Source: Selaginella moellendorffii (Eukaryota; Plantae; Lycopodiophyta). Taken from it: a stretch of 64,000 nucleotides of DNA. The position numbers were made by a program, and so were the translations under genes. Numbering within the stretch: position 1 is the first letter of the stretch; each line of letters begins with the position of its first letter. The stretch covers positions 237,296 through 301,295 of the forward strand of contig NW_003314336.1 of NCBI RefSeq assembly GCF_000143415.4. The letters run 5' to 3'. Positions 3,976-61,571 of this stretch are shown one piece after another. The notes under the pieces were generated by a model. It made no database searches. It saw nothing but the letters and a program-made list of their open reading frames with translations, and had not been told where the DNA came from.

Positions 3976-3999
3976 AAGCTCTATTTCGTTAAAGTGGGA
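3976..3999 (+). repeat. Left TIR, copy 1
   Basis: Reverse complement of 18663-18686. Confidence 0.95.
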
Positions 4000-4417
4000 A
4001 TTGTCATTATCCCACTTGTAAAATAAGGTTTCCAAACCTTTATATAGTATATAAATATAACAAAATTCAACTGCATTGAGGCACATGCCATTTTATTTTA
4101 AACAAGGAAATGTCTACTCAATCACTTCTCCTCCCCCTGCCACTGCTTCACCTCACTCTTCTCCTTATCATCGTCGTCTAATTTCTTTCCATCCTTTTAA
4201 TATTGGCTCAGTTGCTCCAAGACTAGGTGGAGCCCAAGTCCCCATTCAATCTTTACTTTCCCCTTATTAATAAAACAACTTCGTAGACTTCCAATAACAT
4301 GCTGTAACACTTCTAGTATAATGCAAATCCTCTCAAAGAATTGTCTTTTAATATTAATACAATGGCATGGAACCCCATGCCATAATAAGTTACATTTTTA
4401 AATAAATACATGCCATC

Positions 4418-7400
4418 TCAGACTGTTATTTTTTGCCTCCAACGCCTATACAATAATCTTGGAATTTCATCACTCTCCACACTATCAGGATTTAAACCCA
4501 ATAGTAATGCCATCTCTTCTCTAATACGTCCACGCTCATGTTCAGTGGTCGAAGAACCCATCCGGTTGAGCAGATTATGGAGATGCGGATAGTGCTTGGC
4601 TAGACAATATACATGCCATAAATGATGATTGGTGTCTGTCCGATCAAATGGCTTCTGATATACCGTTCCATTTGCCATTTGGTTGATTTCTGCAGCCACC
4701 TCCTGGACTGGCCGGTTCTCTATCACCATCGCTCCAAGCCGTTTTGCAAGGTCCCCCAGAACATACGGTTTCTTCTCCCTAGTTTCCATACTGCAATAGA
4801 TGGGGTGCATTGCATATGTGTGTGTGTTCGCTGCAGTTTTAATCGGCGAGTCATCGATGATGAGGATTTCACTTGACCTAGCAGTCCGGTTCATCACTAC
4901 AACCTCTGCCTTGACGAAGATGGGCTTGCTACCCCTCACATGGACCATAGTCAAGCAATCCTTCTGCGTTAGGAGAAAGTCAAATGGTAATATTACTCGC
5001 GTTGATCGTGCATCATCTGTAGCAACGTTAATGCATTGTGGCGCATCATGGATGTCCAAACTCCCAATTGCAAATTGAACCCGGCCCTCTGTTTTAAGTG
5101 TCGTATGGTCATTATTAGATCCCGCAGTTTCTCCCGTGTGATTAATGTGAATCTGTCTCTTTTGACCAACTTGCGACCGCAGGCTTTGGAGGGTGCAGTG
5201 ACATTCGAGGATGAGCCATGCTCATGGGAGAAAAGGACACCGTTCAGATCAAAAACGATACAGTACCTTCGCCGTGACTCTGAAATGAAATGCGTCAGCA
5301 TAAAAAATGGTACAAGTCAATTTTACCATCTACAATATTAGCGAATGGTGCTCCCGATGGTTGTTGAGAGGGTTTTGGTCGAGGAAACGTGAAGGGCAGA
5401 AATACTCTCCTCTGCAATGTGGGGTCAATCGCATCCGATGGCGTGTGGGCACATGCCATTTCAGCTGTAGACTCTGGTACAACTGGCTCAACAGTGGCAT
5501 GGGGTGGTTCCGATGGCGTGTGATCACACGCCATTTCAGCTTGTGCCTCCGTTGGCAAAGTGGACATGACCGAACAAGCAGCAGGGGCGGTGTAGGGAGG
5601 TTCCAACGGCGCGTAGTCAGACGATTGGGCACACGTTGAGTCTGTTGGAAATGAGGATACGACCGGCTCGGCGGCTGGGGCGGCCTCATGCAGGTCCAAT
5701 GGCGCCTGGTCACCGTCAGTTAGATACGTGGACAAGATTGACTCAGTGGTATGGGCAGCATCAAGTGGAGCGTAGTCAGCTTGCTTGGCGTTGATATGGA
5801 TAGTAGCCTCCACTAGCTCTGATGACTCTTGCAGGCAAGTAGAGTCCACTGGCGGATCCATATGCATGTCCAAATATCTCCCTTCGATTGAGATGGTATC
5901 CTCCCTACTGGCTACTAAAAACAAACTCATTAGCACATTGAATCGACTATACTATATTTACCATCAACTGCTATAGGACCGATATCACTTGGGCGCACTA
6001 CTGATTCTAAAGGATTGGACATACGTTTTGACCCTTGCTTGGCACTATCCTTCCTCGACACTAAAGGCTAGAGTTTGTATCTTAATTCAATTGAATAATC
6101 TCTACTTACCATTTGCTCTGCGACCTACATGGACAATGTTAAAAATGGTAAAAGGTTAGGAATGGATGTACTATTATTTACCTGATGGTTTGTTTTGTAT
6201 GACCTTCCTCCGCTGCTCTTTGGCCACCTCAGGCTGGCCATCGTCGTCATCATCGTCGTCGTCGTTATTGTGATCATCACCATTGTGAGGACCATCCAAG
6301 TCCTCTTCGTCCTCCTTTTCTTCGTCCTCCTCTTCTTTGTCCTCCTCTTCTTTGTCCTCCTCTTCGTCCTTCTGCTCTTCCTGCTCATTATCTTTCTCTG
6401 GCTCCTCATCCCCCTCCTGCATTTCTTCCATAGGCTGCTCAGGCTGGATGGCTTGTTCTTCCAGGACCATCTTGGGAAAATCATCTGGCCGAGTCTCCAT
6501 CTCAAAATACAAGACATCCATAGCCTGTTTTAGTGCGTGACCTAGGACCGTATCCTCACCCGACTGTCTTAACATGGTTTTTGCACGTTCTTGCACCCTT
6601 CGAAGACGACGAGATGAGAAAAACGTGGCCTTGACTTGAAAAGCATCCCTCATCTATTGTACCTCTCCATTGAGATTGGGGAAGGGGAGTCCGCCATAGG
6701 AATCTGAGTCAGGAGGTGGTGACTAGCTGCTTTCACTTAGCCCTTGATCTGCAATGAATGGCATGAGCACACACGCCATAACCGCGAGGCATTACCTATC
6801 ATCTTTTCGTTGCCCTTCTTCCTTTTCGAATCAAACGCCTCTGATCCCGACGACTGTCCAACGTGCTTTCGCTTTTTATGACCACTGTCAATTTGAGCTT
6901 GGCTGGTGCTTGCCTGTTTTGCCTTTGAAGAAGTGTCTCCTGCAAGGAATGGCATGAGACCACACGCCATTGCAAATATAATTTGTACCTCCTTTTCTCC
7001 TATTGCTTGTCTGTTTGTCCTTCTTCGACGTGCCACCAGTGCGCTTTTCAGTCCTCGTGTCTGAATATTCACAACGATCTATAATCAAAATGGCGTGAGG
7101 CCTCACGTGACCTTACCTTGTGCAGGTTGTGAGCTCGGCCCAACATGGGTATCTTCAACAGTAGCTGTTAACGCCGTTTCAGCATCTGGGGGTGGCCACG
7201 CTCCTGCATACATAGCTTGTGAGATAACATTTAAACTTAAAGTGCGTACTCACCAGGTTCGCAGAGAAGATACTGTTTTTCTTTGGCAATTGTAATTATA
7301 TGCTCCATTGAAGTCACCTCTTCAATGGAGTTTGTCACCGCAACACACGGGACACCCTTGAGTAGTGCGGCTCGAAAGAATAGTCCGCTGCAGTTGTACT

Positions 7401-10032
7401 CGACAACGCATTTGCCCTTGGAGTCGGAAGCAGGTGACCCACCCGCTATTGCGTTGAAGACCTGCACCTGGAGCTTTCTTTGGATTTGAAAGCTCCATAG
7501 CTGTCTTCAGTTCCTCAGGCACGGGTAAATTGACCTCCCTCAGATCAATTCAATCGGCCTTGTCGAACGAAGCTGGGAAGTCACTCCAGTCCCACTCTGC
7601 TGCAGGACCAATAACAAGGGCAAGTGTGAAGATGCGGACATTCGTCGGTATCTTCTTCTTAGCCATTATCCCATGGATCTCCCGCATCTCCTTGCCTTTC
7701 AACCGAGCCTTCACCTCGTTCAAGGCCTTCCAGAACTTGTGATAGGATTCGGAGTCGTAGATCATATAGTGGACTGAAGATTCCACCTCCGCAAGTCCCA
7801 CCATTAAGTCAATGATGGAGCTGACTTCGTCTGCATGAGTGATCTCCTCGTTTGTGAAGTCCATCACACAAAAGATGTTCTTGACCTGCTCATCTCCGCG
7901 GGAAACGATGTTCCTCCACCTTTGATCCTCATCCGAATTCACGTATACCCGGTAAGGTTCTCGATAGGCCTCTGCTGCGGGGTCGAGCTGTTTCTGAAGC
8001 CGGCAGTCGACATCCCTCTTAATGAAATTTGGATACTGATCCAACTTCTCAGCTTTACTTTTCGTGGCATCCCGCAGCAGATCGATGAACTTGGGGGCCC
8101 CCTTCACGTACTCGTCGATGTCTTCATTTGACAACTCCAGCGCTTCCATCATCTCTTGCGTGGTGTCGATGCTCACCCTCTCCACGGCCACTTGCTCGAA
8201 GATCCAATCCTTCAATAGCGCATGAGCTCTCAGAGTCGTGTACAAGTCCTCGTATGTCACAATATGGCCGGGAGTCATTTTGGTCTTGTTGAAGACTACC
8301 TCACCACGTTGAAGAGCATTAGCCACTGTCAGAAGGTCGTCATCGTCTAGAGACCGCGAGAAACGCAAGGCGTTGAGCTTCAAATCATTGGGCTTCCGGC
8401 TGTCCTCCACACCCATTGAGTTTAGCAACTCCCCGTCATGGTACTTCCTCAGCACATCTACCCATTTGTCAAAAACAACTTTTGTCGCGAGTAGAATGTT
8501 ATGGATGCTGAGTGTGTCATTGACCCCCAGTGTTTTCGAGAGAAGACTCGAGAATTCCTGCAATGGAAATGGCGTGAGGCCACATGCTATGCCACATGCA
8601 ACGAGGCTTATCTGCCAGGCGCTAGTTGCTAGTGCACGTCCTTGTCCTGGTTTTTGTGGCTTCTTCAGTTGAACCCAGAGCTTCCGTGTTCGTGCCAATG
8701 TCTCGTGCAGACCCGATTTGTAGCACGTTTCTTGCTTGACATTCTGTGCGTGGGAGATGTATATGATAGATCGGAGGGGCGAGTTGCCTTTTATCAGGCG
8801 GACAACTCTTGTCTTGAAGACTTTCTTCACCTCCTCGCCCACCATAATATCCACAACTATCTCTTGCATTGCCAAGCTAGAATGCTGCCCGGAGACGGCA
8901 TAGAACCGGATGTTCTGATCGTCCAACACCTTCCTATTGATCAAGTCTGGAAACCTCGTCTCGCCCTTCATTGTTCGGTAGTAGGGGATCACGTCTGCGA
9001 TGTCGGGTGTTACTGGACTTGCCAGCATCTTCTGCTTCAGTTTCTCCACCCACTCATCAGATACTAGCCTGTGGTTGTATTTGCTTTGGATGTTGATACG
9101 GCTCATGTCAATTGTATATACTTTGTTGGAATAGTAACAAGTACTATTATCTGCGACGATTTTTGCTACCTCTTCTTGCTCTTTCTGCTCTTTGCGGCTC
9201 TTCTTTTTGGTGGGTGTAGTGTTCGAACCCGAGGCAATGGCATCACCGAGTAGCTTCTTTTTTGGAGCAGGAGAGTCGGACGTCGGCTTGAGCTTGACCA
9301 CCCTTTTCTGCTTCGGGGTAGTTTCCAAATCGACCCCCTTCCCCTTCGCTTCGCGAACTGGAGGCACTCTCAACGACTCAATGTTGGAATATAGTTTTTG
9401 AACATCGCCGTAGGTGAGGTCCGTGGATTCCATGTGATCTTCATAGACCCGCAGCGTCTTTGAAATTGTGGGCCTCCTAGACAACCTCTCCCTAGCTCCC
9501 TCTAGGAATTCCTCATAGCCACTGCCCCCCTCCGGGAAGCCGCTAGGATGTGCAAGGTGGATCTTGAAGGCGGACGCTGTCTCTACCACAAGTGCCAGTC
9601 CATATTCTTGCATGGAACTGCATGGAGTGTCTGTCACTTGGATGAGGATCCCCATGCATTCTTTTCTCCCACCATCTGTGTTGTACAGCCTCAGATCCTC
9701 GCCTTCCATCCCGAAAGTCCAACTGGTGAGCTCCTCCCCCTTCTCTGCATCCACATTGACAGTGGCTGGAAGAAGAACACAATTCCTCGCCTGTTCAGAA
9801 ATGCACAACAATTAGAGCTGACAGATGAAAAGCTAGCAGCTGGAAATAACGTGAGGCCACACGCCATTCACCACTGCATCAGATGTCTTGAGGCTGCATC
9901 CTAAGATGGCGTGAGGCTACACGCCATCTGTAACCGGACTGCACTCGAGAGCCCAATCGGTGCATGCCAATGTTGCTACTGAATGGCATGTGGCCTCATG
10001 CCATTTTCTACTTGGCCTAAAAGACTTACCAT
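4418..10032 (-). pseudogene. Multi-exon cargo gene, copy 1 (ParB-like, MTase-like, acidic/Pro-rich, FCP1-type HAD phosphatase)
   Basis: ATG at 10032-10030. GT-AG introns at 9791-10029, 8558-8611 (donor mutated to AT here), 7204-7253, 7079-7116, 6940-6988, 6749-6795, 6125-6181, 6061-6109, 5915-5961, 5280-5326 join the ORF-track pieces in frame. Copy-specific stops (7550, ~6725, ~6655) and frameshifts (~7450, ~5001). Confidence 0.75.
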
Positions 10033-10239
10033 TTGAAGCCGAATGGAGGCGTGACAATCAAGGCCAGACTTGCTGGCGAATGTGCACTGTGTGTGCAGCG
10101 GATTGTAGCAGCAAGGCTACTCTGCCACTTACAGTTGGAGAGTGGCGCTGAAATCTCCCGGGACGCCAAGTGGGCTGCGTGTGGGTGGCGGAGTGGGCGG
10201 CGGAGTTGGCGACGAAGTTACAAACTGGGTGTGTCTTGA

Positions 10240-10402
10240 AGTGGACGCCGATGCACACGAGCGGGATGCGAGTGCGAGTGTGATGCAAGCGCGAGTGGAC
10301 GCCGATGCACACGAGAAACCTGTAGAGAAGGTAGATGAGCGCGAATGTGAGCGTGATCGCGAGTGGGAGCACAATGCGAGCGCGAGTGTGCGAGCGCGAG
10401 TA
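10240..10402. repeat. CG-rich GCGAG(C/T)G-type low-complexity repeats upstream of the cargo gene
   Basis: Direct inspection; length differs among the three copies. Confidence 0.7.
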
Positions 10403-12673
10403 CGAAGCAAAATGCAAAACCTAACCTCACACACGCGAAATGTCACGACGGTTGGTAATCCCGCCACGTCATCATTCCTCGGACTTGGGCGCCACCATTA
10501 ATTTCTGGATCGCCGCGCGCATGCATGCACGTGAAATCCAAAAGAAATCCGCAACGTCATCATTCCTCAGACTGCATGCACGCAAAATATCATTTAATAC
10601 CCTCGCTATATTTATACCATGCATGATTGGATATTCCAAAGCATCTTGTATTTCCAAAAATGCCAGATGTTCAGCTAAATAAAGAATGGTATACAAAAAA
10701 TCCCAAAAAATGCACCAAAAAATGCTCGGTGTCATCTGGCGTAATCTCTTGAATGGCGTGGGGCCGCATGCCATTTTTAGGGGCACATAGGAGTATATTC
10801 CTAGAATATTCTGACATGCGCGAGATTTTTTTGAGTTTTTTGGAGATCCAACCGTTAGATCGCTAAACATATATGTACATTACCCCAATCCCAAAGGGAT
10901 CAAAACAACATTGAGAGCGCACTCTCGAAGAAACTAGTGAAACTATGAGCGCGAACGCCCGGCGCTGCTCTTGGGCCGTCCACCTCCCAGGTGACTCCAC
11001 CGCGGAGCTTGAAGCCACCTGCTTCGCCTCGCCACTCCTCCACTCGGTCACAATGATGTCAAGCCGGACGAACACCATGTCGATCTAGCTCGACGTCGTC
11101 GCAGCCAAGCAGTCCAACTCGAGCACGATGACCCGGCATCGCTCATGGGTCACTCGCCTCCAAGGTGATTCCACTGCACAAGCTGAAGCCACCTGTTACG
11201 CCCCAAGATGTGATGCTATGTCTTGGAGCGCCTACCTCCCCAGTGTACTTCCAGCACTAAGTCGGTGCCCATTGCGAACAAACTCCAAGGCGTAGAACAA
11301 GCAAGGTGTGAGCCTCCTCCAGCTCTAGACTAGAGCGTGCTACCTTGCCTCCCACACTAGACAAGTGCGCTGGCCCCCTTCAATGATATACGAGCCCCCA
11401 TTGCCGGCATCGCGACAATCACAAGACTTGCAAGCCTCCGCGAACCTCCTCAAAGGACTAGCCCTGAAGCAAGAACCATGTGGGATCCCCTCCGCGAGCA
11501 AACCAACTTGGCCATCCGCCACTGGCCCCCTTTGTGACAGCACTTCCCTGTCACTAGATCCAAAAATGCGCCCATAGTGTCTTCCACGTCCATCCACCAC
11601 AGACACTTCGCTATGTCGGGATGTCGTCCTGAACTGTCCTCCACCAGTCAACAAAGTTCCCATGACTTGGTCGTGTTTCCACGACTCAAGTCGCCAAGAA
11701 CCTCCGACACATGCAGCTTCACGCTCCCCGTACCTCAGTCGCCACCTTGCATGGCCCGACCTAAGGCGAGAAATCCCACTCGAAGCTGCGAGACCAGCAA
11801 CCGTCGCGTTTCCACCATGTTGCTGCCGTGCCAACCACATGCAACGAAGATCCCTGACACTTAGAGTGGCCGGATCAAAGATCGCGCCGCCACCCTGAGT
11901 CCTGCCCTAACCGTAGTTAGGGCAAAAGCCAGCCAAGAACCCTAACCCTAGCCACGAATTAGGGCAGGTGAGAACTCTGAGACCGTGAAGAATTTTTGCC
12001 TGCGCTTCTGGGAGGGTGTGAGGCTCCCTCCCAGCTATCCCCCTGTGAATTTTTGTGGAAAAATTCCAAGCCGTTCAGGAGTTATGAGCTCCCAAAAAAC
12101 TTGAAACCATGAGAAGCGAAAAAAGAAGAGGAGGAGAGGAGAGCGTCCAGATCTGCGTGTTGCTGCTGCAGCCGTGGTGTTCCTAACTGCCCTCTCCACT
12201 CCTCCAAATCTCTGAGCCCCGAAAAACCCTAGCCGCCGCCGAAGAGACCTAAAAACAGCAGCGACCTAGGTCCAACCGTTAGATCGCAACTAGATTTTAC
12301 AGAATGGTATACAATGTCTTTCTTGATGACCCTGCAAAGAAGCATCTCGATCGGACACCACATAAGACCACACGAGCCTTACAATGTTTCAGGGGCATTT
12401 GCCATAGATCCGACCGTTATTTTGCTCCAAGATTTTACAGTTTGGTGTGCATTGACCTTTCCATCGAAACTGCAAAGGGACATCACAATCAGATGTGGGA
12501 TCACAAGAAACTAACTTCACTAACTCTGGTTTCACCAAGATCTACGTAAGGAGTTATGAAATGAAAGGACCCTCTCTATTGAAATGTGTTTATGGTCCTA
12601 GGGGCATTGTGACATATCGAAGGATTTTGCATCAAGTTTTGTATTTGCATGTTTATCAAGCTACTGAATTGCT

Positions 12674-12697
12674 AAACCCTAAACCCTAAACCCTAAA
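12674..12697. repeat. Plant telomere-type (AAACCCT)3 / telo-box in the central spacer
   Basis: AAACCCTAAACCCTAAACCCTAAA; also 32631-32654; a single unit in copy 3 (~60097). Confidence 0.8.
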
Positions 12698-13499
12698 CAT
12701 GTGGCAAATGCTGCGTGAAGAAAGATGCCCTTTCTGGGCAAATGCTGTAAGAGGCAGATGCCGAGCAGATGTATCTCAGGCTAGCGAAGGGGACAAACGA
12801 AAACTAGCTATAAACATGATGGGATGCAAATAGATTACTAGGCTGGTCTTGCAAAAATCAAAAACCATAATTGAAAACATTGAAAATGCAAAAAGAAAGG
12901 TTTATAATATTTTTAAATTTTAAGCAATCAAAGGAATGTAAGTAGGGCATGTGTTTGTAAGTTTAAAAATGCCTCAACCACTTAAATTCCCAAGTAAATA
13001 AAGCTGTTTCTATTTTTGGTACAGATAAACTTTATAGTGTGTGGGCTCATGCAATTTTGAACCCAATTTTGAAAATGCACCAAAAAATGCTCGAGTAGCA
13101 TTATTCTTTGAATGACGTGTGGCCTTATATTGCCATAAATGGACGTACACACACAGCATAATTATTCCTTTACACGGCGAATAATCTTGGCGCGGATCGC
13201 TGATATGGCATGGCAAAGTTCGAATCACTCACATGGCACAACTGGATCGAGGCAAGGATATGATGTGACAAAGTTCAACCTCCGACAGCAAAGTCTAGAA
13301 GCTACTCAGTTTGAAATTTGTCAGAGGAATCATAAGATCTGGTTTGTCAGAGGATTTGATGTGACGTTCAAGCGTGTGTTATTTTTGAATTCTCGAACTC
13401 ATTCCTAGGTCTATCATTTTTGTGCACCGTGTTCTTGGTTCCGCTGAGCGCAGTGAGCGCTGCTTGTGTAAGCGGTGTTGTGAGCTGTGGTTTATGCGT

Positions 13500-13635
13500 C
13501 TACGAGCGGTTGCGGCATTGTGAGCGCCATTGCGAGCGGCAGTTTATGCGAGTGGCAGTTTGTGCGAGCGGCACTACGAGCAGTTGCGGTGTTGCGAGCG
13601 GCGCTACGAGTAGTTGCGGTGTTGCGAGCGGCACT
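13500..13635. repeat. CG-rich ~30-bp tandem repeats upstream of the transposase
   Basis: GCGAGCGGCGCTACGAGYAGTTGCGGTGTT-like units; also ~33487-33620 and ~60903-61035. Confidence 0.75.
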
Positions 13636-13998
13636 GTCTTTGGTGTGGCTACCGCTTCCTCTTGATATTCGGCACTTGTGCTTCCTGGTATGTTCACCAT
13701 GGAATGGCTTAGGACCACATTTAGAAATGGCATGAGGCCACATGCCATCTTAGGCCCTTGCAATTTCATGGCTAGCGTATTGTCATGTATGTTTTTACTT
13801 GCCTGCAACTGTGTGTATATCAAGATAGCATGAGGCCTCATGCCAATTTTGTGAATGCGAAATTTCACGTGGGTGTCAATAGCATGTTTGAATAATGGCA
13901 TGTGGCCTCATGCTATTGAGGTTGTTTGGTATGTTATGATTTAGGCCATTCTCCAATCATTTTTTGTATGGTCTTAACTTCTTTTCTGCACTTTCAGA

Positions 13999-16900
13999 AT
14001 GGCCTTCAGGGTTGGGGAAAAGGTTTACATTTTGAATGGTGGGAAGAGAGTTGCAAAAGGGACCCTTGTGTCTATGGATCGGAACTTTGTTATACACTGT
14101 CAAAGGCTTGGGGAAGGCAATGCTGCTGTATCAATAGAGACTGTCTTCGATGGGAATGTGGTCGTTATTGAACGAGGAGAGATGGTCGTCGGGGTAAATG
14201 TTGTTGTTGCCTTGAAAAATCTTCAGAAGAAAGCAGATGTTGGGGACAGCGCAAGTGCGACGCATGTTCCCTCCGTGGATCTTAAGAACCGTGCTACATG
14301 GATTCAGGCAAAGGTGTTTCTAAACAACCCCGAAGGGGAGGTGGTAGCTGAGGGCTTAGCCACAGTTGTCGATCCAAGAGATGCGGTTGCTAATCAAGAA
14401 TTGGGCTGGGATGATATTGGAGTTGCGATTTTAGAGGTTGTTGACACAGAAGAAAATAGTCTGACTATTGGAAGCATTGTGCGGTGGAAATTGAGGCACT
14501 TAGTGTTTGAGAATGTGAAGGATTCACAATCAAACACCACTACAATTGATGACAAAACATCTCTTCATGGGAAAAGAAAGTACACCTTCCTAAAGCGTAG
14601 CCAAAGGGATCTGAGCAACGAACCGAAAAGGCAGAAAATGGCGATGGAGGTTCGAATGGTCTCGACAGTTGCTTGTTGCAAGAGGAGGTGCTGTCAACAT
14701 GCTGATTGGGATGCTATTGAAGAGGAGAAAGCAAGATACAAGACATTGTCCTGGAAGGCAGCTCGCAATTTTGTGTATGAGGCATTACGGTCATCTGTTG
14801 ATGCTTCAGAACATCAGGTGGGGGGCATGGTCTTCCAGAGGGGTTTGGTCTGCATGAAGGCATGGAGAATCATTTATGGAGACCCTCGAACCACATTCTA
14901 CAGAATCAAAACTGAGTTCGAGGAACAAAGGGTTCAATAGGCAGTCCATGGGAACGACGGTACGCACAAAACCAGGGGTCATGTTGTATATGGAGAGGCA
15001 ATCTTCAAGAGGTTTGTCGAGACATGTAGCGAGCAGCAACCACATAAAACCCGCCTCTTGGAAGATGGAACACGAGACACCCAACGAGTTCTCCCTTCCA
15101 TGTATACCAAGGGGGCCATATTGGAAGATGTGAATCGGGAACTCCAGAGTAATGGCTACAGGAAGCTGAGCCAATCTAGATTTAGTAGATTGTGGAGCAA
15201 CAGGTTCAAGGATGTGAGTATAGGAAAGTACTCCAGCTTTTCAAAGTGTGACGAGTGCACTGCTATCAAAATGGCTTTGTCGAAGAATTCTTGCAGCGCT
15301 CAAGAGCGAGAGACGTTGGTTAGAAGGCGGCTCGACCACAACATCGAGCAGAGAAGCTGCAGGACTGCATATTATCATAACAGGATTCTCTCCATGGAGA
15401 GACCTGACTCTTACCTCTACATCATCCACGACAAAATGGACCAGAAAAAGACGTGCTTACCTTGACTCAATCCTGCCCCCAAGGCAATCTCTTCATCCAT
15501 GCAGCTGCCTGTGTCTCTGTTTGGCATAATCGCTCATGGGCATGGTGCCCAGAACTATGGGAACTTCTTTGTACCTCTATGTGCAAACATGATGATTGCG
15601 TCCCTAGCAAAACACTTAAGGTCTCTGCAAAGTGCGCAGACTGAGCTGAACGGCCAACCCTTGCATAAGGCCCTTGTCGATCGAACCCCATACAGGGTTC
15701 AGCTAGAGGAGGAGCAAAGGCTTGCAGTATCGCGTAGGGCCCCATGCCATCCCAGTGAATATGTTGGCCGTCAGATTGTAGGGTTATCACGTGAGGCCTC
15801 ATGCCATTCCGACGAGGCTGGTCGCCCGGTGAATGCACAGCCTCATCCAAACGAAGCAGAATCTCAAGGAAGTTCTTGCGGCCGATGTGGCCTTCCACCC
15901 TATCTTCTGCTCCAAACAGACAATGCTGGCAGTGAGAACAAAAACATGTACGTCTTCGCGTACTTGGCGATGCTTGTTGCCAAAGGCATATTTGAAACGG
16001 TTACACTTGGCTTTCTCATGGTTGGGCACACTCATGAAGACGTCGATGCCATGTTCAGTCACCTGGCAGAGTCCCTCCGGCGATCCAATGTCCTCACCCT
16101 CCCACAACTCTACGATGAATTCCAAAATTGCATCAAAGGCACTGTTGAAGCTGCACTTCTGACAGAGGTTCCAGACTTTAAGGGGTTTGTAAGAGGCTAC
16201 ATCAAGGACGGATCTGAAACGCTGATTGGCCACTCCAAGCCTCTTCAATTTCATTTCAGCATGCGTGACAGTGCTCCAATGATGAGGTACAAGATGAGAG
16301 AATGGGACACAATGTGGCTGCCAGTGGACGGCATTGAACTCTTCAAGAGAGATCCCATAACTGGGGAACCTATGATTCCTCAGGGTTCCCCACGGCCGAT
16401 GCACCCGGATGGACTCAAAGACCAGGAAAGTATAGTGGCCGGGATTAGACAGCATATTGCCTTCTGAAAGAGGGGGTTGGTGTTTAGTGGAGAATCCTAT
16501 TTTCAGAGGTGCAAGCCTTTGCTTGAATACTGGGAGAAGATTATATCTGCTATCCAAAATGGGCCGGTTGTATATGAAGAATTGGAAGAGTCCTTTTGGC
16601 CAGAACCCAGAGCACCAGATAGTAGCGGAACAATGTCCTCTGGAAATGCAGTGACAGATAACGATGTTGAGGATCACTATTGTGGGCCGAGGAACAAGAA
16701 GCCGGATTCAGCATTCAATCCAGTACAGGTCTACAAAGGAATGGTCGTGCTTGTCAGACCCAGTAATAAAAAACAAATGATATGGGTGGGGCACTGCATC
16801 ACTGATGCAGAGGAGGACGCGGAAACTAACTCCTTCAATGTAACTATGGAGTGGTTCAAGCCAAGTTCCGGATATACGAAGGATTGCCTAGAAAAGAGAT

Positions 16901-17128
16901 GGGTGCTGAATCCAAGGGATCTCAGCATGAGCATATCGGTGGATAATGTTGTGCATGGTTTGATGCGGAAGCAGAGTGCCACCATCACCTTGCCAGACCA
17001 TGCAAGAGATGCAGCAAGAGCATTCATAACCCGGGTTCAAGGTGAGATTCATTAATATTCCTTTACTAAGTTTCTAATGTATTTTATTTCAAGGTGAACA
17101 ATCCGAATCTGAATCAGAGGAGGCGTGA
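13999..17128 (+). pseudogene. Sola-like DDD transposase, copy 1 (three premature stops)
   Basis: ORFs 13999-14940, 15058-15465, 15499-16467 and 16477-17055 share one frame. Motifs IIHDKMDQKK, LQTDNAGSENKN, GFLMVGHTHEDVDAMFS. Probable last intron 17042-17093 adds GEQSESESEEA*. Confidence 0.85.
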
Positions 17129-17768
17129 TGGCATGTGGCCTTACGCCATTCCTAGGTGAGATGATACAAATAACAAGTATAAATTCTTAGTTGTTCTAGC
17201 AAATCTTACTTAAAGTTCAAGGTGAACAAGCCGAATATGAATTCATCGGATTGTTATAACAAATTGCGAGGTGATGGCATGAGGCGATACGCCATTTGAG
17301 AGTGGTAGCCATTCCTATATGAGGTGAGTGAAATATTTATTAGAAATACCTCATTCAATTGTGCACTTCTAAGTCTTGGTCCACTCAGTACTGTTTGCAT
17401 GTTTCTATTTTAATTCTTTCTCTAAAATGTTATTTAGCATGTGGCTTCATGCCATTGCTCTCCACAATCATGCATTGAATTTTTCTATCCTTGCATAATA
17501 CTTCTCCATATATATAGCATGTGCGCACATGTGATATGGTTCATTAGGCCTGATATAGTGTGTGAGGTAAAACAAAGATGATATGACATATGCATTTACC
17601 AATCACACGTGCATAAATCTAATAATATGGCGTGTGGCCCATATTAATGGCACATAAACCCATATTGTGGGCTTACGTGCTTTATGTACCATCATTCCCT
17701 TGCAGTGTGTGTGTTGGTTTCCTTTTATAACACAACGAACTCCATATTTTAGGGTGAAGAGCGTTCTC

Positions 17769-18026
17769 ATGGCAAGCACAAAATCTGTAAGTGAGGCAGA
17801 AAAGGAGACGGAGAAGGAGATAGGTGAAGATGTAGAATATATAAGTCTTCCAAACTCCCCGTACTATACTCCAGGTGATCATTTTTCTAAACAAACGGCA
17901 ACATTAACAACTATCGAGAGCGCCCCCGTAACGTCAGAGACAACAATCCAAAGCAAAACAACTGACTCGGAGAAGGATGATAGTACCGCTGAGAGTACCA
18001 AAAAGGAGGTGTCCACTAGCGCTTAG
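17769..18026 (+). CDS. Short Ser/Thr/Glu-rich ORF or downstream exon, function unknown
   Basis: MASTKSVSEAEKE..., preceded by a TTTTAG acceptor-like site; open in copy 2 (37972-38229). Confidence 0.3.
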   Translation: MASTKSVSEAEKETEKEIGEDVEYISLPNSPYYTPGDHFSKQTATLTTIESAPVTSETTIQSKTTDSEKDDSTAESTKKEVSTSA

Positions 18027-18662
18027 GCTTATAATGGCGTGTGCCCTCATGCCATTTACTTGATCACCAAATACCTTTTTCCCTTTGCACTAGTATATCT
18101 TAATACTAGTCTGAGAAATAGAATGGCATGTGCCCTCAGGCCTTTTACTAAATCACCTTTGAAAGAAATGCAAGCCTCTATGTCGTAAAAAAAAGGTACT
18201 AGAGAAATTCCTTAATAATATGAATGTTATTTAGTTTCATGAAAATACACTAAGGGTCAAATGAGTTAAATGACTTCTCCAGACTAGCAATGCCTCTTGC
18301 TACACCTTCACAATTAGATTTGTTATAAAAAGATAACATTGAATAATATCTAAATGTTCTCACCATTAAGTTATATGTCTGGCTAATAGGAATGACGTTC
18401 ATCTTGGAAAGCTCACCACACGCTCAATGAACAAACAAATAGTGTGTGCGCGCATGCCATCGCTCTTCTTTAGCTTCAGATTCGGCTTGTTCACCTTGAC
18501 AATGAGATTTATTATACAACCAGATGGACTCAGTCTGGACACAAAGTCATTGCGCTAGTCACCATGCCCCAGATATGTCTAGCCCCTGGACAAAAAACAT
18601 ATAATTTCACGTCATTTTCAAATACTTGAAAATTTGTACCTAGTCCCATTTTACTGAATAAA

Positions 18663-18686
18663 TCCCACTTTAACGAAATAGAGCTT
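18663..18686 (-). repeat. Right TIR, copy 1
   Basis: TCCCACTTTAACGAAATAGAGCTT. Confidence 0.95.
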
Positions 18687-19033
18687 AAAGGGCATGATAG
18701 CAAGAGTGTTTGGAAAACATAGTAAACTATCATCTAGTGATATTAAGGGATTAGTCCCAATATATTGGGGTTTTTGTCACTAGCCAGTGTGAGACACAAC
18801 AAAACTAGAACTCTTTATTGGGTTAAGTATATTTAGCTAATAGCATGTAAAAATTCCATCCTTATGTTCATCCAATTTAAGTACACTCGAAATGCTTAGT
18901 TAACTCCACTAGCACAAGAAGGACTGATAAAGGGTATAGCAATATCGACCTCCTACTGTTGTGGCAATAAAGAAAAAATATCCAAAAGGACTCATCGACA
19001 AGTAACTTTTAATACTCAGAGTCATATCCACAA
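18687..19033 (-). mobile_element. Diverged 5' part of a family-B LTR in inverted orientation
   Basis: Reverse complement aligns by eye with 20911-21260 and 24630-24983. Confidence 0.75.
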
Positions 19034-20832: not shown

Positions 20833-20910
20833 CCCTGACACTCTCTCTACTATAATTTTAGAACCCTCTATAATGAAATTGTTACAATGTTTACAAGCCC
20901 CATTAGAAAG

Positions 20911-24629: not shown

Positions 24630-25425
24630 TGTCATGAATGTGATTTCAGGTATCGAAAGTTACCTGTTGGCTAGTCTTTACAGACACTTTTACCTTACTG
24701 CCATGATGGCAGGAGGTCAGTATTGTTGGTTCCCTTTATTGGCCTGGCCCCCTTGTTCAAGAGTTAGTGAACTAAACTTTGCATCTGTACTTGGCCAGAT
24801 GAGCATAAGGACGGAATTCCTAAATGTTTATTTAGCCAAACATATTTGGCTTGGCTTTTTAGTTCTCTTTTGCTTTGTCTTGCACTGGCTTAACAAGAAC
24901 CCTTGCGTATTGAGATTAGTCCCTCAATATCGTTGGATGATAGCTTACCTTGTCTGCCAAACACCCTCGTTATCATGCCCTTAAAGCTCTATTTCGTTAA
25001 AGTGGGAATTGTCATTATCCCACTTGTAAAATAAGGTTTCCAAACCTTTATATAGTATATAAATATAACAAAATTCAACTGCATTGTGGCACATGCCATT
25101 TTATTTTAAACAAGGAAATGTCTACTCAATCACTTCTCCTCCCCCTGCCACTGCTTCACCTCTCTCTTCTCCTTGTCATCGTCGTCCAATTTCTTTCCAT
25201 CCTTTTAATATTGGCTCAGTTGCTCCGAGTCTAGGTGGAGCCCAAGTCCCCATTCAATCTTTACTTTCCCCTTATTAATAAAACAACTTCGTAGACTTCC
25301 AATAACATGCTGTAACACTTCTAGTATAATGCAAATCCTCTCAAAGAATTGTCTTTTAATATTAATACAATGGCATGGAACCCCATGCCATAATAAGTTA
25401 CATTTTTAAATAAATACATGCCATC

Positions 25426-28400
25426 TCAGACTGTTATTTTTTGCCTCCAACGCCTATACAATAATCTTGGAATTTCATCACTCTCCACACTATCAGGATT
25501 TAAACCCAATAGTAATGCCATCTCTTCTCTAATACGTCCACGCTCATGTTCAGTGGTCGAAGAACCCATCCGGTTGAGAAGATTATGGAGATGCGGATAG
25601 TGCTTGGCTAGACAATATACATGCCATAAATGATGACTGGTGTCTGTCCGATCAAATGGCTTCTGATATACCGTTCCATCTGCCATTTGGTTGATTTCTG
25701 CAGCCACCTCCTGGACTGGCCGGTTCTCTATCACCATCGCTTCAAGCCGTTTTGCAAGGTCCCCCAGAACATACGGTTTCTTCTCCCTAGTTTCCATACT
25801 GCAAGAGATGTGGTGCACTGCATATGTGTGCGTGTTCGCTGCAGTTTTAATCGGCGAGTCATCGATGATGAGGATTTCACTTGACCTAGCAGTCCGGTTC
25901 ATCACTACAGCCTCTGCCTTGACGAAGATGGGCTTGCTACCCCTCACATGGACCATAGTCAAGCAATCCTCCTGCGTTAGGAGAAAGTCAAATGGTAATA
26001 TTACTCGCGTCTGATCGTGCATCATCTGTAGCAACGTTAATGCATTGTGGCGCATCATGGATGTCCAAACTCCCAATTGCAAATTGAACCCTGCCCTTTG
26101 TTTTAAGTGTCGCATGGTCATTATTAGATCCCGCAGTTTCTCCCGTGTGATTAATGTGAATCTGTCTCTTTTGACCAACTTGCGACCGCAGGCTTTGGAG
26201 GGTGCAGTGACATTCGAGGACGAGCCACGCTCATGGGAGAAAAGGACACCGTTCAGATCAAAAACGATATAGTACTTTCGCCGTGACTCTGAAATGAAAT
26301 GCGTCAGCATAAAAAATGGTACAAGTCAATTTTACCATCTACAATATTAGCGAATGGTGCTCCCGATGGTCGTTCAGAGGGTTTTGGTCGAGGAAACGTG
26401 AAGGGCGGAAATACTCTCCTCTGCAATGTGGGGTCAATCGCATCCGATGGCGTGTGGGCACATGCCATTTCAGCTGTAGACTCTGGTACAACTGGCTCAA
26501 CAGTGGCATGGGGTGGTTCCGATGGCGTGTGATCACACGCCATTTCAGCTGGTGCCTCCGTTGGCAAAGTGGACATGACCGAACAGGCAGCAGGGGCGGT
26601 GTAGGGAGGTTCCAACGGCGCGTAGTCAGACGATTGGGCACACGTTGGAAATGAGGATACGACCGGCTCGGCGGCTGGGGCGGCCTCATGCGGGTCCAAT
26701 GGCGCCTGGTCACCGTCAGTTGGATACGTGGACAAGATTGACTTAGTGGTATGGGCAGCATCAAGTGGAGCGTGGTCAGCTTGCTTGGCGTTGATATGGA
26801 TAGTAGCCTCCACCAGCTCTGATGACTCTTGCAGGCAAGTAGAGTCCACTGGTGGATCCATATGCATGTCCAAATATCTCCCTTCGATTGAGATGGTATC
26901 CTCCCGTGCTACTAAAAACAAACTCATTAGCACATTGAATCGACTATACTGTATTTACCATCAACTGCTATTGAGGAACTAGGACCGATATCACTTGGGC
27001 GCACTGCTGATTCTGAAGGATTGGACATATGTTTCGACCCTTGCTTGGCACTATCCTTCCTCGACACTAAAGGCTAGAGTTTGTATCTTAATTCAACTGA
27101 ATAATCTCTACTTACCATTTCTTCTGCGACCTACATGGACAATGTTAGAAATGGTAAAAGGTTAGGAATGGATGTACTATTATTTACCTGATGGTTTGTC
27201 TTGTATGACCTTCCTCCGCTGCTCTTTGGCCACCTCAGGCTGGCCATCGTCGTCATCATCGTCATCGTCGTTATTGTGATCGTCACCATTGTGAGGACCA
27301 TCCAAGTCCTCTTCGTCCTCCTCTTCTTCATCCTCCTCTTCTTCGTCCTCCTCTTCTTTGTCCTCCTCTTCGTCCTTCTGCTCTTCCTGCTCATTATCTT
27401 TCTCTGGCTCCTCATCCCCCTCTTGCATTTCTTCCATAGGCTGCTCAGGCTGGATTGCTTGTTTTTCCAGGACCATCTTGGAAAAATCATCTGGCCGAGT
27501 CTCCATCTCAAAATACAAGACATCCATATCCTGTTTTAGTGCGTGACCTAGGACCGTATCCTCACCCGACTGTCTTAACATGGTTTCTGCACGTTCTTGC
27601 ACCCTTTGAAGACGACGAGATGAGAAAAACGTGGCCCTGACTTGAAAAGCATCCCTCATCCATTGTACCTCTCCATTGAGATTGGGGAAGGGGAGTCCGC
27701 CATAGGAATCTGAGTCAGAAGGTGGTGACTGGCTCCTTTCACTCAGCCCTTGATCTGCAATGAATGGCATGAGCACACACGCCATAACTGCGAGGCATTA
27801 CCTATCATCTTTTCGTTGCCCTTCTTCCTTTTCGAATCAAACGCCTCTGATCCCGACGACTGTCCAACGTGCTTTCGCTTTTTATGACCACTGTCAGTTT
27901 GAGCTTGGCTGGTGCTTGCCTGTTTTGCCTTTGAAGAAGTGTCTCCTGCAAGGAATGGCATGAGACCACACGCCATTGCAAATATAATTTGTACCTCCTT
28001 TTTTCCTATTGCTTGTCTGTTTGTCCTTCTTCGACGCGACACCAGTGCGCTTTTCAGTCCTCGTGTCTGAATATTCACAACGATCTATAATCAAAATGGC
28101 GTGAGGCCTCACGTGACCTTACCTTGTGCAAGTTGTGACCTCGGCCTAACATCAGTAGCTGTTAACGCCGTTTCAGCATCTGGGGGTGGCCACGCTCCTG
28201 CATACATAGCTTGTGAGATAACATTTAAACTTAAAGTGCGTACTCACCAGGTTCGTAGAGAAGATACTGTTTTTCTTTGGCAACTGTAATTATATGCTCC
28301 ATTGAAGTCACCTCTTCAATGGAGTTTGTCACCGCAACACATGGGACACCCTTGAGTAGTGCGGCTCGAAAGAATAGTCCGCCGCAGTTGTACTCGACAA

Positions 28401-31031
28401 CGCATTTGCCCTTGGAGTCACCCGCTATTGCGTTGAAGACCCAGCTGAGCATTTCCCATGCTGCACCTGGAGCTTTCTTTGGATTCGAAAGCTCCATAGC
28501 CGTCTTCAGTTCCTCAGGCACGGGTAAATTGACCTCCCTCAGATCAATTCGATCGGCTTTGTTGAACGAAGCTGGGAAGTCACTCCAGTCCCACTCTGCT
28601 GCAGGACCAATAACAAGGGCGACTGTGAAGATGCGGACATTCGTCGGTATCTTCTTCTTAGCCATTATCCCATGGATCTCCCGCATCTCCTGGCCTTTCA
28701 ACCGAGCCTTCACCTCGTTCAAGGCCTTCCAGAACTTGTGATAGGATTCGGAGTCGTAGATCATATAGTGGACTGAAGATTCCACCTCCGCAAGTCCCAC
28801 CATTAAGTCAATGATGGAGCTGACTTCGTCTGCATGAGTGATCTCCTCGTTTGTGAAGTCCATCACACAAAAGATGTTCTTGACCTGCTCATCTCTGCGG
28901 GAAACGATGCTCCTCCACCTTTGATCCTCATCCGAATTCACGTATACCCGGTAAGGTTCTCGATAGGCCTCTGCTGCGGGGTCGAGCTGTTTCTAAAGCC
29001 GGCAGTTGACATCCCTCTTAATGAAATTTGGATACTGATCCAACTTCTCAGCTTTACTTTTCGTGGCATCCCGCAGCAGATCGATGAACTTGGGGGCCCC
29101 CTTCACGTACTCGTCGATGTCTTCATTTGACAAGTCCAGCTCTTCCATCATCTCTTGCATGGTGTTGATGCTCACCCTCGCCACGGCCACTTGCTCGAAG
29201 ATCCAATCCTTCAATAGCGCACAAGCTCTCAGAGTCGTGCACAAGTCCTCGTATGTCACAATATGGCCGGGAGTCATTTTGGTCTTGTTGAAGACTACCT
29301 CACCACGTAGAAGAGCATTAGCCACTGTCAGAAGGTTGTCGTCGTCTAGAGACCGTGAGAAACGCAAGGCGTTGAGCTTCAAATCATTGGGCTTCCGGCC
29401 GTCCTCCACACCCATTGAGTTTAGCAACTCCCCGTCATGGTACCTCCTTAGCACATCTACCCATTTGTCAAAAACAACTTTTGTCGCGAGTAGAATGTTA
29501 TGGATGCTGAGTGTGTCATTGACCCCCAGTGTTTTCGAGAGAAGACTCAAGAATTCCTGCAATGGAAATGGCGTGAGGCCACATGCTATGCCACATGCAA
29601 CGAGGCTTACCTGCCAGGCGCTAGTTGCTAGTGCACGTCCTTGTCCTGGTTTTTGTGGCTTCTTCAGTTGAACCCAGAGCTTCCGTGTTCGTGCCAATGT
29701 CTCGTGCAGACCCGATTTGTAGCACGTTTCTTGCTTGACATTCTGCGCGTGGGAGATGTATATGATAGATCGGAGGGGCGAGTTGCCTTTTATCAGGCGG
29801 ACAACTCTTGTCTTGAAGACTTTCTTCACCTCCTCGCCCACCATAATATCCACAACTATCTGTTGCATCGCCAAGCTAGAATGCTGCCCGGAGATGGCAT
29901 AGAACCGGATGTTCTGATCGTCCAACACCTTCCTATTGATCAAGTCTGGAAACCTCGTCTCGCCCTTCATTGTTCGGTAGTAGGGGATCACGTCTGCGAT
30001 GTCGGGTGTTACTGGACTTGCCAGCATCTTCTGCTTCAGTTTCTCCACCCACTCATCAGATACTAGCCTGTGGTTGTATTTGCTTTGGATCTCGATACGG
30101 CTCACGTCGATTGTATATACTTTGTTGGAATAGTAACAAGTACTATTATCTGCGACGATTTTTGCTGCCTCTTCTTGCTCTTTTTGCTCTTTGCGGCTCT
30201 TCTTTTTGGTGGGTGTAGTGTTCGAACCCGAGGCAATGGCATCACCGAGTAGCTTCTTTTTTGGAGCAGCAGAGTCAGACGTCGGCTTGAGCTTGACCAC
30301 CCTTTTCTGCTTCGGGGTAGTTTCCAGATCGACCCCCTTCCCCTTCGCTTCGCAAACTGGAGGCACTCTCAACGGCTCAATGTTGGAATATAGTTTTTGA
30401 ACATCGCCGTAGGTGAGGTCCGTGGATTCCATGTGATCTTCATAGACCCGCAGCGTCTTTGAAATTGTGGGCCTCCTGGACAACCTCTCTCTAGCTCCCT
30501 CTAGGAATTCCTCATAGCCGCTGCCCCCCTCCGGGAAGCTGCTAGGATGTGCAAGGTGGATCTTGAAGGCGGACGCTGTCTCTACCAGAAGTGCCAGTCC
30601 ATATTCTTGCATGGAACTGCATGGAGTGTCTGTCACTTGGATGAGGATCCCCATGCATTCTTTTCTCCCACCATCTGTGTTGTACAGCATCAGATCCTCG
30701 CCTTCCATCCCGAAAGTCCAACTGGTGAGCTCCTCCCCCTTCTCTGCATCCACATTGACAGTGGCTGGAAGAAGAACGCAATTCCTCGCCTGTTCAGAAA
30801 TGCACAACAATTAGAGCTGACAGATGAAAAGCTAGCAGCTGGAAATAACGTGAGGCCACACGCCATTCACCACTGCATCAGATGTCTTGAGGCTGCATCC
30901 TAAGATGGCGTGAGGCTACACGCCATCTGTAACCGGACTGCACTCGAGAGCCCAATCGGTGCATGCCAATGTTACTACTGAATGGCATGTGGCCTCATGC
31001 CATTTTCTACTTCGTCTAAAAGACTTACCAT
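25426..31031 (-). pseudogene. Multi-exon cargo gene, copy 2 (least damaged; premature TAG at 28993)
   Basis: Same exon structure as copy 1. FCP1-like exon intact (YIVFDLNGVLF...LGVWTS...ILIIDDSPIK). Confidence 0.8.
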
Positions 31032-33810: not shown

Positions 33811-34038
33811 GATGGCATGAGGCCTCATGCCATCTTTGGCCCCTGCTAGCCTATTGCCATATTCCTTTTGCCTTGCTGCAACTGTATATATTTTTGTATG
33901 GGTGACTAGTCACGTACACAAAAATATATACAGTTGCAACAAGGCAAAAGGAATATAGCAACAGGCTAACAGGGGCCAAAGATAGCATGAGGCCTCATGC
34001 CATTAGTGGTACCACTAATGGCATGAGGGCTCATGCCA
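33811..34038. repeat. Long fold-back palindrome flanked by 22-bp palindromes
   Basis: Arms ~90 bp centred on GTGACTAGTCAC (33902-33913), then CATTAGTGGTACCACTAATG. Confidence 0.9.
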
Positions 34039-34191
34039 ATTTTGTGAATGCGAAATTTCACGTGGGTGTCAATAGCATGTTTAAATAATGGCATGTGGCC
34101 TCATACTATTGAGGTTGTTTGGTATGTTATGATTTAGGCCATTCTCCAATCATTTTTTGTATGGTCTTAACTTCTTTTCTGCACTTTCAGA

Positions 34192-37100: not shown

Positions 37101-37333
37101 GAGATGGGTGCTGAATCCAAGGGATCCCAGCATGAGCATATCGGTGGATAATGTTGTGCATGGTTGGATGCGGAAGCAGAGTGCCACCATCACCTTGCCA
37201 GACCATGCAAGAGATGCAGCAAGAGCATTCATAACCCGGGTTCAAGGTGAGATTCATTAATATTCCTTTACTAAGTTTCTAATGTATTTTATTTCAAGGT
37301 GAACAATCCGAATCTGAATCAGAGGAGGCGTGA
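34192..37333 (+). pseudogene. Sola-like DDD transposase, copy 2 (stops at 34945 and 35080)
   Basis: Single frame 34192-37260 (1,022 codons); catalytic motifs intact; probable short last exon. Confidence 0.88.
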
Positions 37334-50758: not shown

Positions 50759-51600
50759 AAGCTCTATTTCGTTAAAGTGGGAATTGTCATTATCCCACTT
50801 GTAAAATAAGGTTTCCAAACCTTTATATAGTATATAAATATAACAAAATTCAACTGCATTGAGGCAAATGCCATTTTATTTTAAACAAGGAAATGTCTAC
50901 TCAATCACTTCTCCTCCCCCTGCCACTGCTTCACCTCTCTCTTCTCCTTGTCATCGTCGTCCAATTTCTTTCCATCCTTTTAATATTGGCTCAGTTGCTC
51001 CGAGTCTAGGTGGAGCCCAAGTCCCCATTCAATCTTTACTTTCCCCTTATTAATAAAACAACTTCGTAGACTTCCAATAACATGCTGTAACACTTCTAGT
51101 ATAATGCAAATCCTCTCAAAGAATTGTCTTTTAATATTATTACAATGGCATGGAACCCCATGCCATAATAAGTTACATTTTTAAATAAATACATGCCATC
51201 TCAGACTGTTATTTTTTGCCTCCAACGCCTATACAATAATCTTGGAATTTCATCACTCTCCACACTATTAGGATTTAAACCCAATAGTAATGCCATCTCT
51301 TCTCTAATACGTCCACGTTTATGTTCAGTGGTCGAAGAACCCATCCGGTTGAGCAGATTATAGAGATGCAGATAGTGCTTGGCTAGACAATATACATGCC
51401 ATAAATGATGACTGGTGTCTGTCCGATCAAATGGCTTCTGATATACTGTTCCATCTGCCATTTGGTTGATTTCTGCAGCCACCTCCTGGACTGGCCGGTT
51501 CTCTATCACCATCGCTCCAAGCCGTTTTGCAAGGTCCCCCAGAACATACGGTTTCTTCTCCCTAGTTTCCATACTGCAAGAGATGGGGTGCACTGCATAT

Positions 51601-61226: not shown

Positions 61227-61420
61227 GATGGCATGAGGCCTCATGCCATCTTTGGCCCCTACTAGCCTATTGCCATATTCCTTTTGCCTTTGCTGCAACT
61301 GTATATATTTTTGTATGGGTGACTAGTCACGCATACAAAAATATATACAGTTGTAGCAAGGCAAAAGGAATATAGCAACAGGCTAGCAGGGGCCAAAGAT
61401 AGCGTGAGGCCTCATGCCAA
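61227..61420. repeat. Fold-back palindrome, copy 3
   Basis: Equivalent to 33811-34003. Confidence 0.88.
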
Positions 61421-61571
61421 TTTTGTGAATGCGAAATTCACGTGGGTATCAATAGCATGTTTGAATAATGGCATGTGGCCTCATGCTATTGAGGTTGTTT
61501 GGTATGTTATGATTTAGGCCATTCTCCAATCATTTTTTGTATGGTCTTAACTTCTTTTCTGCACTTTCAGA

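Follow-up and report, generated by a model that had tools for sequence, protein, structure and literature searches.

A dispersed 22-bp palindrome in a Sola1-like transposon family of Selaginella moellendorffii, a candidate binding site for the element's own predicted ParB-like protein

Comparable systems

In two reports on algal transposons published in 2025, ParB-like accessory proteins have been proposed to bind the very elements that encode them (PMC12477816; bioRxiv 10.1101/2025.02.11.637652; here and below, published systems are described from the accessible portions of the cited texts). Sola1-1_Ec32 of Ectocarpus carries a gene with ParB-like and N4/N6-methyltransferase domains on the strand opposite to the transposase (PMC12477816), and in red algal Plavaka elements the ParB-like gene PAG3 lies beside tandem inverted repeats, its proposed targets on its own transposon (bioRxiv 10.1101/2025.02.11.637652). 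Here we describe a comparable arrangement in a 64-kb window of the lycophyte Selaginella moellendorffii (the whole stretch analysed, 64,000 nucleotides of contig NW_003314336.1, to which all coordinates refer). The window holds three copies, 96–98% identical by self-BLAST, of a 14–15 kb family of DNA transposons with terminal inverted repeats (TIRs), and a 22-bp palindrome with the consensus ATGGCRTGWGGCCWCAYGCCAT is dispersed over all of them. We propose that this palindrome is a likely candidate binding site of a predicted ParB-like protein of the element, which would bind it as a dimer; judging from sequence comparison and structure models, we give this proposal a probability of roughly 0.55.

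Motifs in the non-coding parts of a transposon can direct an accessory protein to it, as in the case of VANC, which has been shown to cause demethylation (PMC5735166). According to one of the two 2025 papers (PMC12477816; bioRxiv 10.1101/2025.02.11.637652), VANC is the only transposon protein shown to bind and modify its own sequence. Furthermore, fusions of ParB-HTH (helix-turn-helix) and methylase domains have been described in chlorophytes and chytrids (Iyer 2016, PMC4738411), whereas MpDN4MT1 of Marchantia is a host enzyme with an intact TSPPY motif (bioRxiv 10.1101/2021.02.12.428880). Three other texts place Sola in the classification of transposons and, in their accessible parts, go no further (PMC9033089; PMC4455052; PMC5751038).

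The Selaginella element resembles Sola1-1_Ec32 in its giant Sola1-type layout, in the opposite-strand accessory gene with ParB-like and N4/N6-methyltransferase-like domains, in termini that start with AA (AAGCT...AGCTT, compared with AACCG in Sola1-1_Ec32 and AACAC in the related clade described below) and in a 4-bp target site duplication (TSD) biased to a final A (here CTTA) (PMC12477816). We label the element Sola1-like on the basis of these matches in termini, TSD and layout. Unlike Sola1-1_Ec32, it resides in a land-plant-type host, has a TIR of 27 bp instead of 282 bp, encodes an additional FCP1/HAD domain and has a methylase motif that looks degenerate (PMC12477816). The string "palindrom" does not occur in the main text of that report, and its single match in the supplement concerns an EnSpm family (PMC12477816). 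With the Plavaka/PAG3 system the element shares the combination of a ParB-like accessory gene and inverted repeats, but Plavaka elements have an EnSpm/Plavaka transposase and a 2OG-oxygenase effector, and their repeats form tandem arrays next to the gene, whereas the sites described here are dispersed over the element and into introns (bioRxiv 10.1101/2025.02.11.637652). The VANDAL/VANC system likewise combines an element-encoded accessory protein with lineage-specific motifs in introns, intergenic and terminal non-coding DNA; it differs in its Mu-like transposase and 9-bp non-palindromic motifs, as opposed to a DUF7869 transposase and a predicted ParB-fold protein, and in the demethylation caused by VANC, of which the window gave no footprint in an indirect test on three broken copies (PMC5735166). 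In the literature searched, which included few subscription journals, we found no account of a land-plant version of such a system, nor of effector domains that are degenerate or of sites that extend into introns. Given that the design was published in 2025 for brown and red algal transposons, we regard the Selaginella family as a land-plant variant of a known design (PMC12477816; bioRxiv 10.1101/2025.02.11.637652).

The palindrome and its distribution

We called as a site any 22-mer with at most five mismatches to the consensus. By this definition the window contains 71 sites, 24 in copy 1, 30 in copy 2 and 17 in the truncated copy 3. A preliminary description of this DNA, made from the letters alone, had listed 23 starts in copy 1, all of which begin such a 22-mer, and half-sites near 13112 and 17627, both of which are found; a further site at 17514 (5 mismatches) and a more degenerate subterminal near-site (Table 1) were absent from that list. 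The expected enrichment over the background is present within the window, with 24 sites in copy 1 and none in the 23,824 bp outside the elements, and 100 dinucleotide shuffles yielded 0.06 sites on average and at most one. Flanks mostly differ between sites, as had been stated (2 of 1,104 flank comparisons reach 13/20), and we likewise see, by eye, no resemblance between the palindrome and the TIR. A tandem satellite is rejected, in line with the same description, because the site-to-site spacing ranges from 36 to 1,846 bp.

The preliminary description further held that the arms are conserved and the centre variable. The centre does vary, but it is not a free spacer and is more constrained than claimed: among the symmetrised half-sites (n=48), positions 10/13 are conserved in 44, positions 11/12 in 34 and arm positions 3/20 in 35, so that positions 11/12 are about as variable as 3/20, and the usual core is GGCC. 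Excess conservation of the arms could not be established, since a comparison over the three copies gave 7 variable sites against 11.8 expected (P=0.10, not significant). Complementarity between the two arms of a single site does not exceed that of half-sites paired at random (200 vs 198 matches, P=0.37), which suggests that the site is read by a protein rather than through hairpin formation. The earlier reading of the palindrome as a binding site for a dimeric protein fits everything that we found and is, in our view, partly supported, with a candidate binder apparently encoded by the element itself, a protein of predicted ParB fold; relatives of this protein with solved structures bind palindromes.

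The location of the sites is far from even. In copy 2, coding DNA makes up 57% of the element and contains 4 of the 30 sites, the other 26 being non-coding (P=1e-6); within the accessory gene, seven of nine sites are intronic, although introns account for 14% of the gene (P=3e-5). Each of four introns of 38–54 nucleotides (nt) holds one site, with the motif ending 9–11 nt before the AG, and the four coding sites are divided between a low-complexity linker and a part of the transposase that is an unalignable insertion. Nineteen of the 30 sites belong neither to the accessory gene nor to the transposase coding sequence, and clusters stand in front of both genes. The number of sites varies between copies through duplication, deletion and fold-back. 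Copy 2 contains a fold-back inversion at 31700–34100, within which, at 33812–34044, fold-backs with 96-bp and 34-bp arms add palindromes; copy 1 lacks this stretch between two sites.

Related elements were collected from metagenome contigs, where 487 matches were confirmed, the best 80 loci were kept and 63 were scanned after removal of near-duplicates. The de novo palindrome scan has incomplete specificity: a tandem repeat of 12 bp, unrelated to the palindromes, gave 12 matches in the flanks, and many loci, taken singly, scored no higher than their own shuffles. Nonetheless, 18 of the 63 loci independently yield one other palindrome, 20 bp long with the core GTGGCCAC, and all of these loci belong to one 45-row clade of the transposase tree (131 columns, bootstrap not settled). 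Two further palindromes, with 10 copies each (shuffle maximum 1), come from loci L001 and L022. Across the five elements in which both TIRs are present, 52 sites were counted within the element boundaries, against none in 54,750 bp of DNA beyond them. The TIR core of the window element is shared with L001, whose palindrome differs. That palindrome (TTTTGGCCATATGGCCAAAA, at 525–1831 of L001) has the ATGGC/GCCAT word of the window site in the opposite arrangement, which may be chance.

Table 1. Positions in the window of the transposon copies, their genes, predicted introns and domains, and the palindromic sites of copy 1
Feature	Position	Strand	Remarks
Copy 1, Sola1-like TIR DNA transposon	3976..18686	+	14.7 kb including a 1.4-kb nested insert; self-BLAST and termini
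Left TIR, copy 1	3976..4002	+	AAGCTCTATTTCGTTAAAGTGGGA...; inverted repeat, 96%
Right TIR, copy 1	18660..18686	-	inverted repeat and termini
Palindromes (24), copy 1	4362..18460	.	4362, 5438, 5513, 6758, 6949, 7090, 8569, 9846, 9906, 9983, 10753, 13034, 13727, 13825, 13895, 15729, 15786, 17128, 17274, 17434, 17514, 18034, 18123, 18439
Degenerate subterminal near-site	4070..4091	.	6 mismatches; centre 104.5 bp from left element end
Accessory gene, copy 1	4418..10032	-	frameshifted; predicted ParB-like, helical, methyltransferase-like, disordered linker and FCP1/NIF-like parts; nine predicted introns
Predicted intron 1	9791..10029	-	239 nt, three palindromes
Predicted intron 2	8558..8611	-	54 nt, one palindrome; donor GT in copies 2 and 3, mutated in copy 1
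Predicted intron	7079..7116	-	38 nt, one palindrome
Predicted intron	6940..6988	-	49 nt, one palindrome
Predicted intron	6749..6795	-	47 nt, one palindrome
ParB/Srx-like nucleotide-binding domain (predicted)	8651..9178	-	motif SGQHS; hidden Markov model (HMM), structure model and fold searches
Helical domain aligned to ParB/Noc/KorB DNA-binding domain	8204..8650	-	HTH inferred; parS-bound ParB 6t1f_B, 184/190 residues aligned, Z 8.4, root-mean-square deviation (rmsd) 5.7
DUF7869 DDD transposase, copy 1	13999..17055	+	premature stops; two palindromes in hypervariable insertion of catalytic domain
Copy 2	24984..38889	+	13.9 kb, 30 sites; inside a long terminal repeat (LTR); TSD CTTA
Accessory gene, copy 2	25426..31031	-	1,605 codons with nine predicted introns removed, one premature stop
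FCP1/NIF-like HAD domain, copy 2 (predicted)	25426..26288	-	motif DLNG; Pfam NIF 24.4 bits, cutoff 21.8
Degenerate N4/N6 DNA-methyltransferase-like domain, copy 2 (predicted)	28248..28992	-	Atlas leads 0.88–0.89; Selaginella homolog E=1e-5
DUF7869 transposase, copy 2	34192..37260	+	stop and frameshift in N-terminal third
Copy 3	50759..64000	+	broken at 51604–53848, ends at window end; self-BLAST

The accessory gene, its predicted protein and the element

The accessory gene is predicted to be a spliced gene with nine introns. The splice signals of eight of these were located in each of the three copies (in copy 1 one donor is mutated), and those of the ninth in copy 2, where keeping any one of eight predicted introns would introduce 4–81 stops. 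The 54-nt intron, though in frame, is supported by the fact that it is an insertion relative to homologs. Word-based protein searches with the accessory protein gave no match, and searches of Pfam and PDB by sequence were blank apart from the NIF match of the HAD part; a full HMMER search yielded 17 homologs (E 1e-9 to 8e-4). Of ten homolog clusters looked up, the four that are named come from Selaginella, Calypogeia, Riccia and Adiantum, and the Adiantum homolog likewise joins a ParB-like part to a NIF domain.

The ParB-like fold is a prediction that rests largely on a structure model of residues 210–753 (mean pLDDT 70, mostly 85–95 in the ParB part). The ten best Foldseek matches of the model are all Noc, KorB or ParB (E 0.004–0.04, none below 0.001), and in an unbiased fold search of 48,161 chains the eight best are ParB/Srx-fold proteins (Z 9.4–6.0, the next being 4.4); the fold matches comprise ParB, Noc, KorB and PadC. 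The nucleotide domain superimposes on ParB 7bm8 with Z 10.3 and rmsd 2.2 over 98 residues, and the alignment with parS-bound ParB 6t1f (Table 1) covers the helical domain. Alignments of the latter reach model residue 319 with rmsd 5.6–12.5, and the model contains an 18-residue intron-derived peptide. A homodimer prediction scored 0.10 and is not used as evidence. The best Atlas feature match to the ParB-like part is DUF3723 (PF12520), a family of fungal proteins (0.97), for which the Pfam HMM gave no match to this part; DUF3723 is linked to fungal Starship elements. The predicted nucleotide and helical domain folds and the multiple dispersed palindromic sites recall ParB-parS, Noc-NBS and KorB-OB. 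The bacterial sites are 13–16 bp long, compared with 22 bp here, and the Selaginella protein differs from bacterial ParB, Noc and KorB in having GQHS in place of GxxR, the CTP-binding motif of ParB; no ParA partner was seen in the element.

The methyltransferase-like domain is assigned from language-model features only, with all 10 best family matches in one family or clan; it has no Pfam match, and its structure model (pLDDT 46) was uninformative in Foldseek. No catalytic [DNS]PP[YFW] motif is seen in this domain, where VMDFTN stands at the position inferred by eye, and the HAD domain has DLNG, also found in Adiantum P0087/P0098, instead of the catalytic DxDxT. Thus, the nucleotide, methylase and phosphatase motifs of the accessory protein all look degenerate. 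Like MpDN4MT1, the protein may represent the bacterial-type N4/N6 methyltransferase family in a seed-free plant; it differs from that enzyme in the VMDFTN motif, and the accessible text mentions no ParB domain for MpDN4MT1 (bioRxiv 10.1101/2021.02.12.428880).

In the transposase, D181, D348 and D388/D390, which we take to be the Sola catalytic triad, are kept in at least 24 of 25 aligned sequences. The best named relatives come from the liverwort Riccia and weaker ones from marine animals; the profile gave no match in PDB, no relative was found in viral contigs, and our literature search found no link between DUF7869 and Sola. Downstream of the transposase, at 17658–18026, a 122-codon acidic open reading frame (ORF) without a Pfam match is accompanied by repeated splice-like units and may represent a small third gene. 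Upstream of the transposase, three plant telomere repeats (TAAACCC) are found in copy 1 (12673–12693) and in copy 2 (32630–32650).

The TSD of copy 2 was checked against the empty site in the sister LTR, the flanks of copy 1 are mismatched, and the right end of copy 3 is beyond the window; in two of five complete related elements, L009 and L074, the TSD is ATAT. Copy 2 splits the 3' LTR of a Gypsy-type retrotransposon (protease, reverse transcriptase, zinc knuckle; 20910–24983 and 38890–39349). The right end of copy 1 and the left end of copy 2 abut the identical position of homologous LTRs in opposite orientation (18686–19027 vs 20919–21260 and 24983), which, together with the mismatched flanks of copy 1, suggests that the target site is a preferred one or that the copies have rearranged with each other. 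A separate repeat family of 11–12-bp tandem units (CTCCATCTCGGA) flanks the elements at 857–1190, 44460–44990 and 50200–50655. The summed contig depth in one DNA run is 650,000–910,000 over most of the element and 8,000–37,000 over the nested insert of copy 1, which points to an abundant family, depth not being equal to copy number. This GC-rich 1.4-kb insert (10849–12288) is found only in copy 1, has a 16-bp direct repeat on both sides and three ORFs without a Pfam match, and is the best-covered part in two runs guessed to be RNA. About 40 nt at 10096–10135, without an Rfam match, are also matched by contigs from other loci, the loose ends of which presumably resemble large-subunit ribosomal RNA. 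C-to-T differences between copies affect 14% of CG, 8% of CHG and 2% of CHH positions, as expected of methylated plant DNA.

Candidate binders and proposed role

Under the proposed mechanism, a ParB-like dimer would contact both half-sites through its helical domain, in the manner of ParB, Noc and KorB. The sites would multiply by local duplication and be kept where they are harmless, that is, in introns, untranslated regions, intergenic DNA and unconstrained loops, so that the protein could tag its own element over the full length and act in trans for copies with internal deletions. The accessory protein would then be a scaffold that coats the element and aids its expression or the pairing of its ends; we favour a scaffold over an enzyme that methylates the element because of the degenerate motifs. 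The effect of the coating on the element is the weakest step of this proposal, and the action in trans and the effect on chromatin or end pairing are what we infer from the arrangement.

Several observations weigh against it. Decay at CG/CHG positions is no lower near sites (24/231 vs 167/1258, P=0.28, an indirect test on three broken copies), and the observed/expected ratio of CpG in the element (0.54–0.87) is not raised relative to the Gypsy element beside it (0.68–0.70), results that leave an anti-silencing role unsupported. The GxxR arginine is missing in all 17 motif-bearing sequences (16 S, 1 T), which makes a CTP clamp doubtful. Contigs of run X15, the RNA nature of which is a guess, span predicted introns 1 and 9 unspliced. 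A scan of the best 80 related loci for ParB-like genes at E<=1e-3 found none; with relaxed settings, a frameshifted, decayed ParB-like gene was detected behind a palindrome array in each of L034 and L074, both members of the GTGGCCAC clade, and in L074 NIF genes follow it. This pairing of gene and array speaks for the proposal, but the scores of the remnants are weak (9.6 and 2.4 bits), the two are themselves related (81% identical), and palindromes occur with no detectable ParB-like gene in the complete elements L009, L033, L051 and L063. Two or three tandem NIF-like domains occur in the relatives (L009, 2470–5367; L074, 13700–15486). Finally, the fixed phase of sites relative to the element ends would suit a role of the transposase equally well.

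The transposase is the main rival, chiefly because of this phase and of the small elements. It would bind the palindromes, subterminal and internal, as an enhancer of end pairing, as is the case for the subterminal repeats of hAT or CACTA elements, and the ParB-like gene would be a passenger or act elsewhere; we consider this possible, at well below even odds. For 18 of 34 right ends in the related clade, the centre of the nearest site is 82.5–84.5 bp away, and for 3 of 7 left ends it is 100.5–104.5 bp away, a range that includes the left near-site of the window, but shared descent alone could keep this phase, and the right end in the window has no good site near 84 bp (the best, at 18549, has 8 mismatches). 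Elements of 4.3–4.6 kb with a transposase remnant alone keep 6 sites each, which could nevertheless be deletion derivatives served in trans. The type of palindrome follows the transposase clade in the tree mentioned above, and the N-terminus of the transposase weakly matches the TNP1/EnSpm family PF03017 (E 0.004–0.04, below cutoff); however, the window element and L001 have retained a common TIR core, whereas one palindrome has taken the place of another. Moreover, inverted-repeat arrays accompany the ParB-like genes of Plavaka elements in an unrelated transposase superfamily, so that there the repeats follow the ParB-like gene (bioRxiv 10.1101/2025.02.11.637652).

We regard it as improbable that the sites arose neutrally, as a side effect of local duplication and template switching in an element prone to repeats. 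Such an origin would agree with the differences in site number that duplications, deletions and a fold-back inversion have produced between copies 96–98% identical, and with conservation not significantly raised over three copies, but hardly with sharing limited to 22 bp between sites whose flanks are unrelated in nearly all pairs, with independent lineages each having a palindrome of fixed length, or with the occupation of 38–54-nt introns. Binding by a host transcription factor or chromatin protein, to which we give slightly less credence still, could account for the site clusters in front of both genes and for the central GWGGCCWC/GTGGCCAC core common to the window and the related clade; against it stand the lack of sites in 23.8 kb of flanking host and retroelement DNA, the unrelated palindromes of L001 and L022, and the length of the motif, 22 bp being long for the site of a plant factor. 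The least probable explanation is an RNA hairpin that acts in splicing or marks self-copying introns. The constant distance of the motif end from the AG (9–11 nt) in four short introns speaks for it, and two of these introns fold more stably than shuffled sequences (z -2.5, -3.1). Against it, the remaining two show no such difference (z 0.45, -1.17), arm complementarity is that of random half-site pairs, as described above, 19 of 30 sites lie outside both genes, and the palindrome has no Rfam match.

Binding by the element's own ParB-like protein thus remains the explanation that we prefer. In its broadest and, in our opinion, rather doubtful form, it would imply that seed-free land plants carry a transposon-borne parS/ParB system, in which a protein of ParB origin, whose methylase and phosphatase domains are dead, loads onto palindromes specific to each lineage, even in its own 38–54-nt introns, spreads clamp-like over the element and shields it from silencing or joins its ends, the site and the recognition helix co-evolving by lineage. 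In a single young family, the locus combines a long, precisely defined candidate site with a predicted protein, and there are relatives that have different sites, which makes the algal ParB-binding proposal directly testable and extends it to land plants. If the proposal holds, a ParB-type protein of a eukaryote that recognises 22 bp would in addition provide a module for specific targeting.

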